Shown here: positions 24,239-59,901 of the stretch, piece after piece | How positions within the stretch are numbered: position 1 is the stretch's first letter | Layout of the letters: every line of letters begins with the position of its first letter | Origin: Bdellovibrionales bacterium | GTDB lineage: Bacteria; Bdellovibrionota; Bdellovibrionia; Bdellovibrionales; UBA1609 | DNA: 64,000 nt | Reading direction: 5' to 3' | Assembly (NCBI GenBank): GCA_041690295.1 | Contig: JAWLHR010000003.1 | Span: 128,001 to 192,000 of the forward strand | Notes under the pieces: generated by a model | Told to the model about the DNA's origin: nothing | The model's database searches: none | Seen by the model: the letters and a program-made list of their open reading frames with translations, nothing else | Position numbers and translations under genes: made by a program

Positions 24239-25206
24239 GAACTGCCCCACTAGCCTGCAGAAAATCCTGGCGAGAATTTTGCCCTTAACCACAGGGCATG
24301 CGACCAAGCTGCCCCTATTGTCATTCATCCTCAGAGATGTCCGATCGCCGGATGCGTATTCTAAAAGCCGGATTTTTTCGCCGAACCTCCGACGGAAAAA
24401 GAGTGCGAAGATTTTATTGCGTTAGCTGCTCTAGATACTTTTCTTATGCCACCTTTCACCCCTGCTTTAGGCAAAAAAAGCGCCACCTCAATCACCGCAT
24501 CAACAAACTTTTAGCTTCAAGCGTTTCCCAGCGCCGAATCGCAAAATTACTCCATATCTCCCGAACCACAGTTGAACGAAAGTTTCTCTTCCTTGGCCAA
24601 AAAGCAGTGCATGAGCTTGAACATCAAAACAAATCCAGTCCCCTGGCCACTGTTGTTGAATTTGATGAGCTTGAAACCTTCGAGCACACAAAATGTAAGC
24701 CGCTTTCCGTTCCACTAGCCGTTGAATCAAAGACCAGAAGGATTTTAAGTTTTCAAGTGGCCCAGATGCCGGCCAAAGGAAAGCTCGCCCGTATCTCACG
24801 AAAAAAATATGGAAGGAGACCGGATTTCAGGCCGAAAGCATTGAGTGAACTTTGTGAACGTTTAAAGCCACTCACCGCACCTGATGTACAATTCAAATCC
24901 GATCAAAATCCAATGTATCCGGAAATCTTAAGGCGTCACTTTCCTTTAAATTCGCATGAGCGGTTTAAGGGGCAAAGGGGTTCGATTGTCGGACAGGGAG
25001 AATTGAAGAAGATCCGATTTGATCCGCTTTTTAGCTTGAATCACACCTGTGCGATGCTTCGAGCCAATATCAATAGGCTAGTGAGAAAGACCTGGTGCAC
25101 AACGAAAATTCCTAATAGATTGCGCCTTCATCTCGCCATCTATGCGGTTTATCACAACAATATGATTCGCGCGGGACCATTGGCTGCAGGCTAGTGGGGC
25201 AGTTTT
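24238..25206 (+). mobile_element. IS1/IS1595-like insertion sequence, copy 1 (969 bp)
   Basis: 21-bp perfect terminal IR AACTGCCCCACTAGCCTGCAG (24240-24260 / 25184-25204), 23 bp with one mismatch; second copy at 58933-59901. Confidence 0.88.
24298..25194 (+). CDS. Transposase (Zn ribbon-HTH-DDE-like), copy 1
   Basis: CPYC...CVSC, HTH SQRRIAKLLHISRTTV, EFDELET, KSD, LRANINRLVRKTWCTTK resembling the IS1 C-terminus; stop lies inside the right IR. Confidence 0.85.
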   Translation: MRPSCPYCHSSSEMSDRRMRILKAGFFRRTSDGKRVRRFYCVSCSRYFSYATFHPCFRQKKRHLNHRINKLLASSVSQRRIAKLLHISRTTVERKFLFLGQKAVHELEHQNKSSPLATVVEFDELETFEHTKCKPLSVPLAVESKTRRILSFQVAQMPAKGKLARISRKKYGRRPDFRPKALSELCERLKPLTAPDVQFKSDQNPMYPEILRRHFPLNSHERFKGQRGSIVGQGELKKIRFDPLFSLNHTCAMLRANINRLVRKTWCTTKIPNRLRLHLAIYAVYHNNMIRAGPLAAG

Positions 25207-25268: not shown

Positions 25269-26864
25269 TTACTTAACTCGTTTGAAATAGTACGTGCGCT
25301 TGCCCGTGTCCTCATCGTATTTGAGAACGTTTTGGACGTAGTCGATTTCATCCGCGTCGACGGTGTCGGTAAGAACCGCGTGTAAATAAGTGTTCTTATC
25401 CTTGGCCCAGCAATAGTTGTACTCATCGGAGCAGCGGGGGCCGTCTCGGACGGTGAAACTGCCGGTATCGCCGACGTTCGCCTTGGGAACGAAACCTTCG
25501 GCAATGTAACCCGCCATCGTTTTGTCGTTGTTGTAATAGAGACCACCATCGTTCACGCCACTGGCGTTATGCACGCCGTAATCCATGTAGAAGGTGTATT
25601 CACCGTTGTTTTCTTCGAAGAGCCGCGCCGCCGAACCCAGGATCGGACTCGTACCGCCCTCATAAACGGGAGGGTTGAGCTTGATACCGTTATCTTCGAA
25701 CTTCCAGGAGGCCACGTGTTGGCTGGTGATCATCCCCAATTGAGGAACGTTGTTTTGCATCACCAATGTCATCGTCGCCGTGGAATAGTGATTGAACACG
25801 GGATCGCCATTGCCATCCAGTTGGGTGGTGATCAGGTAGGTGTGCAATTCCAGTCCTTCGGTGTCCAAGAAAGCGAAGGCGGGCAGGTAACCTACTCGAA
25901 AAGCCGGCGTGTCTTGCGGGAAGAAATCGCAGTCGTTGAGACCCCAATTATTCTCACCGTCCGAGCAATCGCCGGAAAGTGGAAAACCGACCGGACCCAG
26001 CTTGGTGGAGTTATCTCCGATGAGAAAGGTATCGAACGGGCTTTTGATCGTATAGCCATAATCGTTCGGAGGATCAAGCGGACGAGTGCCATCTCCCGTC
26101 CATGCGAAAACATTCTTAAAGCCGGAAATGAGAATGTTAATCGTGGGCGAGGATTTTTCGGCGATCGTCACCGGCGCCGGAAGAACGGAGTGGGTTCCGC
26201 AAGTCATGGCGGAGGCGGTGCTGTTCGTCGTGCTGTTGGAGCAGTATGTGTACAAGAAGCCGTACTCATACTCATCATAGCCATTGGCTTCGAGATCGTT
26301 CGGCGCGATCACATTGTTTTCGACTTGGACGCCGTTGGCCGTCGTGAAAACGGTTGTATCAATGTCGTCGTCGTTGTCCCTGTCGAAATAGGCGTAGGCT
26401 TTAATTTTGAATTTGGGTGAGAAAGTCAAACCCACGGTCAGGTACGTCCCCGCTTCGATTTCTCCGCTGCCTGTGACGGACATGTTCACACCGTCGGCCA
26501 CGTCCAATTCTTGGTTAACAGGCACGGAAGTCATTGATCCGCCGCCACCCGGGCCGGACATGAAGGCCACGGACAGCAAATGAACTTTCAAAGAATCAAC
26601 GACGGCGTCGGAAGTGACGACACCCATTCCTTCATATTCGCCCGCGGCCGTGTTCGGGTCGGAAACCAATTTGATTCCAACTTTGCCCTTCGAGGCGAGA
26701 AAATTCGCGGCAATGGCGTTGGCGTCGAGAGCGCTGGCGCCTTTGGCGACGACGCGAACATTGGCTTTCTTCTTCTTCTTTTTCTCACATCCGGCGATTG
26801 TTCCCGCCGAAATCGCCGCCATCATGGCGACCATTGTGATGGATGATATCCATCTCAATTTCAT
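25269..26864 (-). CDS. Large uncharacterised lipoprotein (531 aa)
   Basis: SD AGGAGGAG; signal peptide ending IAGC then EKKKKKK; D/N/G/T-rich beta-type sequence with several Cys and DRDNDDDID. Confidence 0.8.
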   Translation of the reverse strand: MKLRWISSITMVAMMAAISAGTIAGCEKKKKKKANVRVVAKGASALDANAIAANFLASKGKVGIKLVSDPNTAAGEYEGMGVVTSDAVVDSLKVHLLSVAFMSGPGGGGSMTSVPVNQELDVADGVNMSVTGSGEIEAGTYLTVGLTFSPKFKIKAYAYFDRDNDDDIDTTVFTTANGVQVENNVIAPNDLEANGYDEYEYGFLYTYCSNSTTNSTASAMTCGTHSVLPAPVTIAEKSSPTINILISGFKNVFAWTGDGTRPLDPPNDYGYTIKSPFDTFLIGDNSTKLGPVGFPLSGDCSDGENNWGLNDCDFFPQDTPAFRVGYLPAFAFLDTEGLELHTYLITTQLDGNGDPVFNHYSTATMTLVMQNNVPQLGMITSQHVASWKFEDNGIKLNPPVYEGGTSPILGSAARLFEENNGEYTFYMDYGVHNASGVNDGGLYYNNDKTMAGYIAEGFVPKANVGDTGSFTVRDGPRCSDEYNYCWAKDKNTYLHAVLTDTVDADEIDYVQNVLKYDEDTGKRTYYFKRVK

Positions 26865-27004
26865 GACTCCTCCTTGTTGCAACGAACGTGGTTGGTTGTG
26901 GACGCTGGATTCCAATTCGAACGGTCGGTTCAATTAGAGTTTACGTCCATGAATGATATAAAAATGTTAGGGAGGGAATCCGGTTTTCACAAATCGGCCA
27001 AATC

Positions 27005-27021
27005 CGCTCACAGAGTGAGCG
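27005..27021. promoter_or_regulatory. Palindromic operator-like site (7-3-7)
   Basis: CGCTCAC-aga-GTGAGCG in the divergent promoter region. Confidence 0.55.
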
Positions 27022-27052
27022 CATGTTGCATGTTGCCGACCTTCGTCTCTAG

Positions 27053-27072
27053 GTTCTATCATTCGATAGAAC
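27053..27072. promoter_or_regulatory. Palindrome (8-4-8) overlapping a putative -10 just before the ATG
   Basis: GTTCTATC-attc-GATAGAAC; TTGCCG (27033-38) N18 TATCAT (27057-62). Confidence 0.5.
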
Positions 27073-27073
27073 A

Positions 27074-28585
27074 ATGGCAAAAGCGGAACCTGGTGCTCGC
27101 CTGCAGCGGCTGCGACAATTACTCGGACTTTCCCAAAGGCAAATGGCGACCGAACTGGGCGTTACGCCCGGTGCGCTGGCCATGTGGGAGCGAAAGACCA
27201 GGCCTGTTCCGGCACCGATTCTGAAAATCATCGAGATCTACGAAGAGGCGTTGGACGAAGAACTTGCCCGGCGCAAGCATCAGGCCATGATCCGAAAGCT
27301 GAGCACGACTTGGGCCAACCGACTTTTGGTCATGTTCGGTAAGGGCGCATACGGCGTAAAAAGGGCGGAAATCAAAAGCCGGCTGCAACGTGCGCTCAAT
27401 GTAATCTTCACCCATGAGCTCTCCATTGACCGGATCAAACGAAGCATCCAGCTGGCGATTTTCAATCGCATTGTGAATGCCGCGTCCCAGACCAAAGGCT
27501 TGCCGATGAAGGTGGTCCAGATCCTGACCTACTTGAATCCCGGCATGTCCCGTGAAGCGCGGGAGGCCGTGGAGGAGATCCATTGCCTGCAATATCCTTT
27601 GGCACCGACAGTGGTTTCGCGGATCATCACGGAAAGCCTTGGTGCTTCCCCGAATCGAATATTCGCCGAGTGGTCTCCGCACCCGTTCGCCGCCGCCAGC
27701 ATCGGCCAGGTTCACCTGGCCAAATTGAAAACCGGCGAGCGCGTGGCGGTCAAAGTTCAATATCCCGACATTCAGAAATCTTTAAGTCGCGATTTAAAAG
27801 CCTTGCAATTCGTCATGGACATTTCACGCCTCTTCAGTACGGATGTCAGAGGCGTCATAGAAGACGTCAAAAGAACCGTATTGGACGAGACGGACTATTA
27901 CAAGGAAATGGAAAGTCTCGAATCCTTCGCGCGACTTTTCAAAGACGATCCCCAAATAATAACTCCCAAGGTCTATCGTGAATATTCTCATGCCAATATC
28001 ATCACGATGGATTTCATCGACGGGAAATCCATCAAGGAATTCAAATCGGCTGACTACGAGGAGCGGCGGATGGCGGCGGAGACCCTGGCTCGGTTCACCA
28101 CGCTTTCGTCATTTAAAAGCGGTCTGGTCAATACCGATGCGCACGCGGGAAACTTCATTTTTTGCGGTGGCGGAAAAGTGGGATTCATCGATTTCGGCCG
28201 GTCGGCGCCGGGCGACTTGAACGGCTCTTATGCTTTCAAGGAGTTAATGAAGGCCGTAATTCTTAAGAATCCCGACCTGGCCAAAAAGGTGATCGATCAT
28301 TTCCCCTTTATCCGCGATCCTAAAACTTTTCCATTCGAGCAGTTTTGGGAATTTTTCGTGCGACAGCAAGCACACTTGAATTCGGGAAAATTCCGTTTCA
28401 CCCACGATTACATCGCGCGAACCTTCGCCGAGATGAAAGCTTGTCCTTTTCGCGATGAGTTGAAGGTCACCATCGAGACCGTGTGGTCGACGGCGGTTAT
28501 GGCCGGTATCTGGCGGATCCTTGCGGATTTGGACGTTGAAGTGGATTACGGACGAGTCAGTCTAGAGGCGCTGGGGGAACAATAG
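27074..28585 (+). CDS. XRE-family HTH fused to UbiB/ABC1 (AarF) atypical kinase
   Basis: RLQRLRQLLGLSQRQMATELGVTPGALAMWER (XRE HTH); FAAASIGQVH, VAVKVQYP, ETDYYKE, DAHAGN, IDFG. Confidence 0.88.
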   Translation: MAKAEPGARLQRLRQLLGLSQRQMATELGVTPGALAMWERKTRPVPAPILKIIEIYEEALDEELARRKHQAMIRKLSTTWANRLLVMFGKGAYGVKRAEIKSRLQRALNVIFTHELSIDRIKRSIQLAIFNRIVNAASQTKGLPMKVVQILTYLNPGMSREAREAVEEIHCLQYPLAPTVVSRIITESLGASPNRIFAEWSPHPFAAASIGQVHLAKLKTGERVAVKVQYPDIQKSLSRDLKALQFVMDISRLFSTDVRGVIEDVKRTVLDETDYYKEMESLESFARLFKDDPQIITPKVYREYSHANIITMDFIDGKSIKEFKSADYEERRMAAETLARFTTLSSFKSGLVNTDAHAGNFIFCGGGKVGFIDFGRSAPGDLNGSYAFKELMKAVILKNPDLAKKVIDHFPFIRDPKTFPFEQFWEFFVRQQAHLNSGKFRFTHDYIARTFAEMKACPFRDELKVTIETVWSTAVMAGIWRILADLDVEVDYGRVSLEALGEQ

Positions 28586-28588
28586 CAC

Positions 28589-29170
28589 TTACCAAGGTGA
28601 CGGGTGACGATCTTCGCTGGCGGGAGCGGGCCAAATCGCCAGCGTGATCACCATGGCGCCAAGAAGAAGTCCGAAGGCCAAAGGTGATCCTAATTTCAGG
28701 ATCAACATGTGCGCGCGGGTCACGGCCACCAAAGCGCCGGCAATAACCGAGCAAATGATCAATGCGATGGACCGGGAATGAGTTTTCGCCACGACTTGAA
28801 AGAACCAACCGAATGCCAGCCCAGCTGTCACGGCCGGTGGTGTGAGTAAAAGAGCGCCCAACCAGGTACCGGTCAATGAAGTGAACGCGCGACTCTCAAT
28901 CCATCGCAAAAGAAAGTAAGCCAAACCATGGGCGACCAGAACGCCCAATCCCGCGGCCCGTAACCAATGTTCAGCGCTGGTCGCCGGACGCGAGTCTATG
29001 ATGTAAACCGCGATCAGAATCGTAATCAAAAGCAAATAAAGATGAACAAAAAGCGCGGTTTGCGGGTGAGCGCAAATCAATACCATTTTACCGAGGAAAA
29101 GCGTTTGCATCCCCAGATATCCAAGTCCCACCAGAAAGGCGCCGCACATTGGACGAAGTGTCATAAACAC
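28589..29170 (-). CDS. Polytopic membrane protein (about 6 TM)
   Basis: Hydrophobic throughout; LGLGY...HP..ALF and P....G.AF patterns recall the C-terminal membrane half of MFS/spermidine-synthase-like fusions. Confidence 0.6.
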   Translation of the reverse strand: MFMTLRPMCGAFLVGLGYLGMQTLFLGKMVLICAHPQTALFVHLYLLLITILIAVYIIDSRPATSAEHWLRAAGLGVLVAHGLAYFLLRWIESRAFTSLTGTWLGALLLTPPAVTAGLAFGWFFQVVAKTHSRSIALIICSVIAGALVAVTRAHMLILKLGSPLAFGLLLGAMVITLAIWPAPASEDRHPSPW

Positions 29171-57212: not shown

Positions 57213-58948
57213 AGTGGTTAAGCCGTTTACGGGAATATTTTTGTGGTTCAGTTCACAATGAGCTCATCCGCTATCAACATCGGGCTGAACAATTGCAGCG
57301 GATCGCCCGGGCGCTCGCCGAATCAGTCTCCTTGGAGAAAATGGCTGAAATCGTGGCCAATGAATGTAAACTCGCGCTCAATGCGGACGCCGTTTGCGTT
57401 TACATGCTTCGCAAGGACGGCGTTTACGAGATGATCTCCGAATTGAACTGCACCGATGAGTTCAAGACCAAGTGGCGCCTTGTTCCCAAATCCATGGTTC
57501 CGCTGCCGAATCCCACGCAAGATCCGGAGTCTTACTTTTATGGCTCGACCGAGCAATTCAAGTCTGAAATTCCCAATGTGGGCGAGGTTGTGGAAAAGTC
57601 CAAGCGACAGACCGTCGGCTATGCGCCTTTGATCGTCAGCCGGGAAGTTTTGGGCCTTATTGGGTATTCGTACAATTCCGTTCCCAAGGAATCGACCGAC
57701 AAAACATTTTTAATCACGCTGGTGAATCTTTGCGCCCAGGCCCTTGAACGGGCCCGTTTGAGTGAGCAGGAGAAGCGCGCGCAGGAAGCCGCTGATAACG
57801 CGAATCAGGCCAAGTCGAAGTTTCTCGCCTCCATTTCCCATGAAATCCGAACGCCGTTGGCGGTGATTCAGGGGTTCGCCGATCTGCTCGCGGACTCCTA
57901 CGGCCTCACTTCACAACAGCGTAGTTGGGCGAGCATCATACGCAAAAACTCGGCGCAGTTGGGTGGGATCGTCGGCAATGTTCTCGACATTTCACGGATT
58001 GAGGCGGGAAAGGTCGACGTCGAGAAAATCGCCTTTTCGCCCCGGGATCTTTTTGAAGATGTGAAAGCCACGGCCGAGTTCAAAGTGAAGACGAAGAAAC
58101 AATCCCTTGCCGTTGAGTTCACTTGGCGGAACTTGCCCGAAATGATTGAATCCGATCCCACGCGACTGAAACAAATCCTGAATAATTTGGTTGGTAACGC
58201 GATCAAATTCACGCAATACGGTATGGTCAAGGTGGAGGCTGAATTCCGGGAACCGGACTTATTGGAATGCACTGTGACCGATACGGGGCTCGGCATCCCG
58301 CCAGAGAACCGCGAGCGGATATTTGATCCCTTCGAGCAGGGAGAAAGTTCCGGACATCGACGGTTCGGCGGCGCGGGATTGGGATTGGCGATTTCAAAAC
58401 GTTTGGCCCAGGCTCTCGGTGGTGATCTGGTTCTTGTGGAGTCCGAACTGGGACGAGGATCGAAATTTCGCTTCTCCGTCAAATGCCAGCCTGTGACGGC
58501 TCGTGAGTTGATGCCCAACGTGCATTCCATTTTTCCCAAGAATGTGGCGACATCCCGGGAGCTAAGCGGTTTTAACGTGTTGGTGGTCGAGGACAATCCC
58601 GATAACCAACAGCTCGTTTACCATCTTTTGGATCGGGCCGGAGCCCGCGTGGATCTGGCTTCGGACGGAGCCGAAGGCGTTAAAATGGCGCTCGCGGGGG
58701 ATTACGATGTCATCCTGATGGATATTCAAATGCCCGAAGTCGACGGCTTTCAAGCCGTGTCTTTCCTGCGGACGCAAGGCTATCGCAAAGCCATCGCCGC
58801 GTTGACGGCGCATGCGCTTCAAAGCGAGAGGGATCAGGCCATGATTTTCGGCTTTGACGAGTATCTTACGAAACCCATCGACCGATTAACCTTGATTGAT
58901 GTGATTCAAAGGCTAAGAAACCAGAAAGAGCTAAAACTGCCCCACTAG
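57209..58948 (+). CDS. Cytoplasmic hybrid sensor histidine kinase (GAF-HisKA-HATPase-REC)
   Basis: SHEIRTPL, NLVGNAIKFT, DTGLGI, GAGLGL, LMDIQMPEVDG; ATGA overlap with the upstream gene; stop codon lies inside the IS IR. Confidence 0.92.
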   Translation: MKWLSRLREYFCGSVHNELIRYQHRAEQLQRIARALAESVSLEKMAEIVANECKLALNADAVCVYMLRKDGVYEMISELNCTDEFKTKWRLVPKSMVPLPNPTQDPESYFYGSTEQFKSEIPNVGEVVEKSKRQTVGYAPLIVSREVLGLIGYSYNSVPKESTDKTFLITLVNLCAQALERARLSEQEKRAQEAADNANQAKSKFLASISHEIRTPLAVIQGFADLLADSYGLTSQQRSWASIIRKNSAQLGGIVGNVLDISRIEAGKVDVEKIAFSPRDLFEDVKATAEFKVKTKKQSLAVEFTWRNLPEMIESDPTRLKQILNNLVGNAIKFTQYGMVKVEAEFREPDLLECTVTDTGLGIPPENRERIFDPFEQGESSGHRRFGGAGLGLAISKRLAQALGGDLVLVESELGRGSKFRFSVKCQPVTARELMPNVHSIFPKNVATSRELSGFNVLVVEDNPDNQQLVYHLLDRAGARVDLASDGAEGVKMALAGDYDVILMDIQMPEVDGFQAVSFLRTQGYRKAIAALTAHALQSERDQAMIFGFDEYLTKPIDRLTLIDVIQRLRNQKELKLPH

Positions 58949-59901
58949 CCTGCAGCCAATGGTCCCGCGCGAATCATATTGTTGTGATAAACCGCATAGA
59001 TGGCGAGATGAAGGCGCAATCTATGAGGAATTTTCGTTGTGCACCAGGTCTTCCTCACTAGCCTATTGATATTGGCTCGAAGCATCGCACACGTGTGATT
59101 CAAGCTAAAAAGTGGATCAAATCGGATCTTCTTCAATTCCCCCTGTCCGACAATCGAACCCCTTTGCCCCTTAAACCGCTCATGCGAATTTAAAGGAAAG
59201 TGACGTCTTAAGATTTCCGGATACATTGGATTCTGATCGGATTTGAATTGCACATCAGGTGTGGTGAGTGACTTTAAACTTTCACAAAGTTCACTCAATG
59301 CTTTCGGCCTGAAGTCTGGTCTTGGGCCATATTTTTTACGTGAGATACGGGCGAGCTTTCCTTTGGCCGGCATCTGGGCCACTTGAAAACTTAAAATCCT
59401 TCTGGTCTTTGATTCAACGGCTAGTGGAACGGAGAGCGGTTTACATTTCGTATGTTCAAATGTCTCTAGTTCGTCGAATTCAACGACGGTAGCCGGCGGA
59501 CAACTATGATTTTGATGTTCAAGCTCATGTACGGCTTTTTGGCCAAGGAAAAGAAATTTTCGTTCAACCGTGGTTCGGGAAATGTGAAGCAGTTTTGCGA
59601 TTCGCCGCTGGGAGACGCTTGAAGCTAAAAGTTTGTTGATGCGGTGATTGAGGTGACGCTTTTTTTGCCTAAAGCAGGGGTGAAAGGTGGCATAAGAAAA
59701 GTATCTAGAGCAGCTAACGCAATAAAATCTTCGCACTCTTTTTCCGTCGGAGGTTCGGCGAAAAAATCCGGCTTTTTGAATACGCATCTGGCGATCGGAC
59801 AATTCTTGTGATGAATGACAATAGGGGCAACTTGGTCGCATGCCCTGTGGTTAAGGGCAAAATTCTCGCCAGGATTTTCTGCAGGCTAGTGGGGCAGTTC
59901 T
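58933..59901 (-). mobile_element. IS1/IS1595-like insertion sequence, copy 2 (969 bp)
   Basis: Same terminal IRs (58935-58955 / 59879-59899) and same length as copy 1. Confidence 0.88.
58945..59841 (-). CDS. Transposase, copy 2
   Basis: 298 aa; about 12 substitutions versus copy 1 by manual comparison. Confidence 0.85.
   Translation of the reverse strand: MRPSCPYCHSSQELSDRQMRIQKAGFFRRTSDGKRVRRFYCVSCSRYFSYATFHPCFRQKKRHLNHRINKLLASSVSQRRIAKLLHISRTTVERKFLFLGQKAVHELEHQNHSCPPATVVEFDELETFEHTKCKPLSVPLAVESKTRRILSFQVAQMPAKGKLARISRKKYGPRPDFRPKALSELCESLKSLTTPDVQFKSDQNPMYPEILRRHFPLNSHERFKGQRGSIVGQGELKKIRFDPLFSLNHTCAMLRANINRLVRKTWCTTKIPHRLRLHLAIYAVYHNNMIRAGPLAAG

Follow-up and report, generated by a model that had tools for sequence, protein, structure and literature searches.

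The window considered here, a stretch of 64,000 nucleotides from a Bdellovibrionales bacterium (contig JAWLHR010000003.1), holds a gene that fuses an XRE helix-turn-helix (HTH) to an ABC1 atypical kinase-like domain and stands divergent from the gene of a predicted lipoprotein of 531 amino acids (aa). According to the sequence comparisons reported below, the fusion would be a one-component regulator: its HTH would bind a palindrome, its ABC1 domain would work as a nucleotide-gated small-molecule sensor, and the protein would control one to three lipoprotein genes. We give this reading a probability of about 0.55. The fusion itself is a genuine, conserved architecture. The main elements are the following (positions are those of the window; G, C, and L numbers elsewhere are our labels for genomes, contigs, and loci, G000 being the window genome).

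27074..28585, plus strand: XRE-HTH / ABC1 (COQ8/MABP-1-type) fusion gene, a single open frame of 503 aa; HTH at aa ~6-60, helical linker and KxGQ-type extension at aa ~62-190, kinase-like lobes at aa ~190-500
27101..27235, plus strand: XRE helix-turn-helix HTH_3 (aa 10-54, Pfam)
27611..28282, plus strand: ABC1 atypical kinase-like domain (aa 180-403, Pfam)
25269..26864, minus strand: predicted lipoprotein, likely the regulated gene; 531 aa from ATG, lipobox-like TIAGC with Cys26
27006..27020, no strand: candidate operator GCTCAC-AGA-GTGAGC (palindrome scan, matrix scans, and strict pattern over 384 genomes)

Both domains are reported by Pfam above cut-off (35.1 bits against 23 for HTH_3, and 186.4 against 22.9 for ABC1, PF03109) within one open frame, as an earlier note on this DNA had claimed, and the motifs it had listed (AAASIGQV, VAVK, DAHAGN, DFG, and KVVQ) are all present. 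The search for HTH plus ABC1 architectures, which the note had suggested, found a real family rather than separate genes or a frameshift artefact. The 90% library contains about 30 full-length relatives with 29-62% identity, a few of them carrying an automatic JGI two-domain label. Full-length fusions account for 66 of the best 150 matches in the 50%-identity library, i.e., for at least 66 clusters, a lower bound counted among those 150. Because so many full-length relatives exist, an assembly or frameshift artefact is excluded. Among the 384 Bdellovibrionales genomes, 17 carry the fusion (23 genes, three of them in G144 and another three in G145), and a phylum sample of 351 adds 6 further genomes from other orders. 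The distribution is patchy within the window's genus (2/18 genomes), and a related-locus search of genome contigs with the fusion returned one locus only. In a quick tree of the kinase part (119 sequences) the 60 fusions need 5 label changes compared with 40 after shuffling, and one branch with support 100 unites 40 of them (the main clade below). The tree is unrooted; in it the window fusion groups with those of G273, from the same order, and G137, both of other families, and apart from its own genus, which suggests transfer or patchy loss. Two genomes hold clusters of fusion genes, three tandem paralogues in G144 (L064:6503-11676) and a divergent pair in G145 (L060:7138-10269), each preceding a short secreted ORF (open reading frame) and a 650-aa lipoprotein with 17 cysteines.

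Regarding the sensor part, K227, E272, D355, and N360 are kept in all 60 fusions and the DFG aspartate (Asp373) in all 59 that cover it; nucleotide and metal binding are thus under selection. In the HTH, Q21, R22, A25, W38, E39, and R43 are near-invariant across the same 60 sequences. A profile search places Rv3197/MABP-1, MSMEG_1954, and COQ8A/B as the nearest solved proteins (best E-value 1.5e-79). The AlphaFold2 model, with a mean predicted local distance difference test (pLDDT) of 86, agrees: the best Foldseek matches are the closed form of MSMEG_1954, Rv3197, and COQ8A (E-values from 5e-19 to 5e-16), with a TM-score of 0.77 to 7cyr. The HTH helices span residues 6-17, 21-28, 32-39, and 47-60 in this model, with a long helix 62-88 behind them. 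A homodimer prediction scored 0.27 against a mark of 0.42 and is used neither for nor against the reading. The scores of the fusion lie below the equivalog cut-offs of UbiB proper (142 vs 488 bits for TIGR01982, and 101 vs 667 for PRK04750) and below that of the MABP-1 family (133.8 vs 800 bits for NF050082). UbiB proper carries C-terminal membrane helices. No membrane helix is predicted in the fusion, where the highest 19-residue hydropathy is 1.17 (at most 1.55 across 30 fusions). Judged by its sequence, the domain belongs with the soluble COQ8/MABP-1 type and not with UbiB proper, which refines the "UbiB/ABC1 kinase" named in the earlier note.

Several related ABC1 genes were seen along the way. 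The window genome holds a separate one with a 589-aa frame. Two proteins of 1050-1067 aa carry an N-terminal AMP-binding (acyl-CoA synthetase-like) fusion (L073:2469-5621 and L074:5203-8406), and five of 760-840 aa have a long N-terminal region (L072:5706-8195, L161:4577-7033, L162:6152-8650, L075, and L160) that gave no Pfam match in the two scanned. Another non-fused gene lies right behind two fatty-acid desaturase genes (L163:3657-6669).

Two motifs of the domain have drifted. The Ala-rich loop reads AAAS in the window fusion and ATAS, AVTS, etc. elsewhere in the clade. The KxGQ motif reads KVVQ, i.e., its lysine, glutamine, and helical insert are kept and the glycine is lost; the glycine is present in 17/60 fusions (0/40 in the main clade) vs 54/59 non-fused ABC1 proteins. 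These values, together with the intact catalytic residues, would support a phosphorylation switch: a cleft opened by loss of the glycine would let the domain control the HTH by phosphorylating either itself or another protein. The motif is said to occlude the cleft, and the accessible part of one report describes a plant ABC1 protein with protein kinase activity (PMC8956952). We nevertheless consider such a switch unlikely: the KxGQ lysine and glutamine are retained in 59/60 and 56/60 fusions, no recurrent substrate or phosphatase gene occurs in the loci seen, and 37 of the 66 wider fusions in the 50%-identity library keep the glycine, so the fusion works without its loss. In addition, the third position of the alanine triad is Ala or Thr in 56/60 fusions; we take this to be the residue at which a change to Gly conferred kinase activity on human COQ8A. 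By analogy with COQ8 and MABP-1, conformational gating driven by an ATPase seems likelier than phosphorylation of a protein.

As for the operator, its flanking C/G extend the arms to 7 bases (27005-27021). It falls within the intergenic stretch 26865-27073, which the earlier note had singled out for a binding test, and precedes the lipoprotein ATG by 141 bases and that of the fusion by 53. When the surroundings of 23 fusion genes were scanned for palindromes without bias, related sites emerged in seven loci, which served as the training set of a matrix, and the consensus is GCTYAC-N3-GTRAGC. A matrix score of 16 or more is reached in 14/20 fusion loci and 2/8 further ones (16/28 in total), including 9 of the 21 loci outside the training set. 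The background at this score is 6 sites in the 2.88 Mb window genome and 1/12 non-HTH ABC1 loci. The strict pattern occurs in 7/17 genomes with the fusion and in 2/367 without it.

The operator keeps to the lipoprotein gene in whichever order the genes stand: in G089, G071, and G103 about 1.8 kb separate the fusion from the site, yet the site precedes the lipoprotein by 141-222 bases. Of the 17 cases measured, 14 have the site 94-277 bases ahead of the nearest target start; in G300, G318, and G629 they stand 9-30 bases before the fusion's own start. A lipoprotein of another family is likely a trans target of the fusion, to judge from the site before it:

G000:C22:7250-8620: 456-aa lipoprotein in the window genome, operator 149 bases upstream plus a further half site (L088, 7250-8784)

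This site is among the top three matrix sites of the window genome, and a homologue in G273 (contig C20, E-value 4e-105) has one 160 bases upstream. In G022 a trans site precedes a secreted pair. Six sites, from five genomes and two families, are located 50-51 bases before a shared TCTRRTTTNA-like element, which may be part of a promoter; a sigma-54 reading of it gave no fit by eye. Proteins with an altered recognition helix (G643/G426/G595, G503, and G541) have altered outer bases with the AC-N3-GT core kept, as read by eye. A large regulon was rejected, the loose pattern being at chance level in 38 genomes. Close to the fusion start there is also a second palindrome, not seen in other fusion loci, in a region with 1 promoter-like site where 0.4 are expected by chance:

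27053..27072, no strand: second palindrome, its arms 8 bases long; it overlaps the fusion gene's weak predicted -10 box (27057-27062)

The lipoprotein stands divergent from the fusion, as previously noted, and gives no Pfam or NCBIfam match. It has 12 relatives, with which two metagenome loci were found: L079 holds a 49% homologue that is again divergent from a fusion and has the same palindrome, and L080 shows no fusion within the stretch covered. Order-wide, distant homologues occur in 2 other genomes, beside a fusion in G004 and not so in G124. Its model (pLDDT 64.5) is mostly beta, in part a sandwich at the N-terminal side and a small barrel at the C-terminal side, and Foldseek found no match at E <= 0.001. 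A TbpB-like handle-plus-barrel comparison gave an E-value of 0.009 and a probability of 0.12 with this middling model, while the barrel matches reach a VIA Z of at most 7.5 (root-mean-square deviation 3.5, 98 aligned). Atlas matches are all below 0.9; DUF4382, at 0.77, is a weak lead among them.

More generally, the fusion has a large predicted lipoprotein next to it in 12/27 loci, whereas 8.9% of ORFs in the window genome have such a neighbour; these are the loci not picked for having a lipoprotein, and the background uses a rough regular-expression lipobox. The co-occurrence that had been proposed for the window pair is therefore seen as enrichment, and not as one conserved arrangement: the partners belong to several families, occur in any order (divergent, upstream, downstream, or convergent), and are sometimes candidates in trans. 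A single lipoprotein family for all loci is not supported. Only three groups link (window/G004a/L079, G004b/G144/G145 with G089/G071/G103, and G000-C22/G273/G098), and the window family vs the G106/G022 family reaches 0.4% in hhalign. A Pfam scan of the fusion neighbours gave nothing above cut-off save a hydrolase two genes away in G273. Since the lipoproteins span several families without a Pfam match, nothing in them names the signal. In two genomes a 43-52-aa lipopeptide ORF follows the operator, ends in a strand-like stretch, and comes before a secreted protein, homologous between the two, that has a signal peptide of its own (L063:8870-9990 and L165:3376-4640), possibly a naturally split lipoprotein.

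The same positions can be viewed from the enzyme's side. The ABC1 domain might modify or sequester a toxic small molecule, a role akin to that proposed for MABP-1 (PMC6208485) or to APH-type kinases, with the HTH mainly regulating its own gene and the lipoprotein as a co-induced helper. The nearest solved relatives are indeed macrolide-binding ATPases (PMC6208485), the sites of G300, G318, and G629 are placed for self-regulation, the distribution is patchy, and two loci adjoin a transposase. However, the MABP-1 model scores 134 against its cut-off of 800, G089, G071, and G103 have their strong site at the lipoprotein and not at the fusion, and the paralogues of G144 and G145 resemble sensor expansion rather than one detoxifying enzyme. 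We regard a trigger enzyme of this kind as improbable and prefer the sensor.

An HTH of the same subfamily also occurs alone in nine genomes (74-90 aa, E-values down to 3e-28), and G287 has a truncated fusion:

L030:7128-7373; L168:3826-4050; L169:3780-4037; L170:3815-4045; L172:4022-4246; and L167, L171, L173, L031: stand-alone XRE genes

In eight of the nine, the gene's own start is closely preceded by the palindrome or by a variant richer in AT, often twice (four genes by the matrix, four read by eye). A matrix trained on these sites alone recovers 9/28 fusion loci vs 1/12 controls. The stand-alone genes stand at the head of NsnABC operons (one of which was scanned, while another three look alike from their ORF starts; NsnABC is also named Menshen), an operon with an IetA ATPase, one with a TIR-type effector model match, and efflux operons (three). 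Judging by sequence context, they are likely an undescribed controller of defence operons, and the fusion HTH likely descends from such autoregulators of anti-phage and efflux operons. The defence link also invites another explanation, namely that the fusion locus is itself a defence cassette, whose regulator would sense phage or envelope damage through a change in nucleotides or lipids and then switch on surface lipoproteins to block adsorption or entry. The company kept by the stand-alone copies and the diverse, patchy targets would suit it. On the other hand, PADLOC matches neither the fusion nor the window lipoprotein, most fusion loci lie among housekeeping genes, and three of the stand-alone copies head efflux operons, so a cassette of this kind is rather improbable.

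A number of observations weigh against the one-component regulator. A strong site is lacking in 12/28 fusion loci, and the matrix trained on the stand-alone sites misses the window site. Two matrix hits fall in coding genes and are probably spurious, namely the training site L067 and C4:139949, which scores highest in the window genome. The loose pattern, like its control, appears at roughly one copy per genome whether the fusion is present or absent (38 genomes). Moreover, G094 has the site and no fusion, and G332, also without a fusion, has the pattern in a paired intergenic repeat of ~150 bases (L087, L093). The genomes are kin, so p-values overstate. The recognition helix, TPGALAM, is poor in polar side chains, and the drift of KxGQ and the Ala-rich loop could mean altered catalytic activity. 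As for the putative targets, 15/27 fusion loci have no adjoining large lipoprotein, and a short secreted ORF intervenes in 3 of the 12 positives, leaving 9/27 strictly adjacent. The lipoproteins form several families, none of which matches Pfam above cut-off, and the middling model of the window protein leaves the fold searches without a clear match. Some of these points (the G094 and G332 sites, and the 12 loci from which the palindrome is missing) speak for a palindrome read by another factor or a structural repeat, with the fusion merely hitch-hiking with lipoprotein genes, but the strict-pattern counts, the same site before stand-alone HTH copies that share no other gene, and the way in which site variants go with helix variants make this very improbable.

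For the one-component regulator we propose the following mechanism. The HTH would very probably read the GCTYAC-N3-GTRAGC palindrome as two subunits, since the site is twofold symmetric. The targets would, with good probability, be the divergent 531-aa lipoprotein, the 456-aa C22 lipoprotein, and probably the fusion gene itself. In MSMEG_1954, according to the accessible part of the source, ADP moves the N-terminal accessory domain and the ligand pocket opens (PMC8696161). For COQ8, the accessible parts of two reports describe ATP hydrolysis that gates a lipid pocket (10.64898/2026.02.03.703536) and ATPase activity that phenols and cardiolipin modulate (10.1101/149823). MABP-1 dimerises by a domain swap of its N-terminal helices (PMC6208485), and the fusion HTH is joined to the equivalent helices (profile alignment; helix 62-88 in the model). 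By analogy, the ATP/ADP state and the bound ligand would quite plausibly shift this N-terminal extension; with the HTH joined to it by a long helix, DNA binding or contact with RNA polymerase would change. Activation of the targets is slightly favoured, because most sites lie 94-277 bases before target starts and six of them 50-51 bases before the shared element. The ligand would be small and probably lipophilic; lipids are suggested by COQ8 biochemistry and by the related ABC1 proteins with AMP-binding fusions or desaturase neighbours.

A wider proposal is held only tentatively. The fusions may form a new class of transcription factors with a UbiB/COQ8 ATPase as sensor, made when Bdellovibrionota grafted on the HTH of a defence autoregulator and then duplicated and diversified the product; prey or environment lipids (quinones, prenyl-phenols, and antibiotics) would each switch an exchangeable surface lipoprotein via the shared operator. 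If true, this class would be a natural reporter for ligands of bacterial UbiB-family proteins.

The earlier note had also placed the block between an insertion sequence (IS) and the nucleoside operon, and these do flank it:

24298..25194: IS1-like transposase (NF033558, E-value 5.9e-14, below cut-off)
28589..29170: 193-aa hydrophobic membrane protein, convergent with the fusion

The transposase scores under both the IS1 and the ISL3 cut-offs and has 7 full-length copies in the window genome (95-100% identity), another one at ~58948-59841. The membrane protein is absent from the other fusion loci fetched, and its 53% orthologue in G007 lies directly after the amidohydrolase. Because this orthologue goes with the nucleoside operon and the transposase is multicopy, both genes are left outside the module; for the membrane protein the convergent position is right, whereas membership of the module is not.

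The ligands of bacterial UbiB/COQ8-like proteins and the role of their ATP cycle are a long-standing question without a simple readout. With an ABC1 domain tied to a DNA-binding module and a nameable site, nucleotide and ligand effects become testable by electrophoretic mobility shift assay or reporter. The regulator would also widen the range of sensor folds among enzyme-derived one-component regulators, and the uncharacterised lipoproteins under its control would make up a small regulon of predatory bacteria.

Our literature search turned up no description of an XRE-ABC1 regulator or its operator, in line with the novelty suspected earlier; subscription journals and supplements were outside it. 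The accessible part of a catalogue of ABC1 architectures does not mention an HTH (PMC1262709). Among known systems, MABP-1 (Rv3197) and MSMEG_1954 resemble the fusion in being soluble, in the D-A-H-x-G-N loop, and in N-terminal helices, with which the linker that follows its HTH can be aligned. In contrast, they have no DNA-binding domain, keep KxGQ intact, share 23-26% identity with it, and have been described in terms of resistance rather than regulation. COQ8A/COQ8B (ADCK3/4) and UbiB share the ABC1 fold, the Ala-rich loop, the invariant K, E, D, and N, and DFG. They have neither HTH nor operator and play membrane-associated roles in quinone synthesis, while the fusion has no predicted membrane helix, has lost the KxGQ glycine, and has no ubiquinone genes recognised alongside. 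The stand-alone XRE autoregulators, presumably comparable to controller proteins, share the HTH subfamily and the palindrome and, unlike the fusion, have no sensor domain. BzdR, whose HTH is of the XRE type, has a parallel in NadR. According to the accessible part of its description, BzdR combines, like the fusion, a DNA-binding domain at the N terminus, a linker, and an enzyme-derived sensor domain (PMC3602430). Its sensor, however, is P-loop shikimate-kinase-like and has lost catalysis, whereas that of the fusion is a protein-kinase-like ABC1 domain with invariant catalytic residues, which speaks against membership of the BzdR subfamily. BzdR targets a catabolic operon, and the putative targets of the fusion are lipoproteins. 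In comparison with these systems, the fusion would be of the one-component kind, its sensor fold apparently undescribed and its candidate site named.

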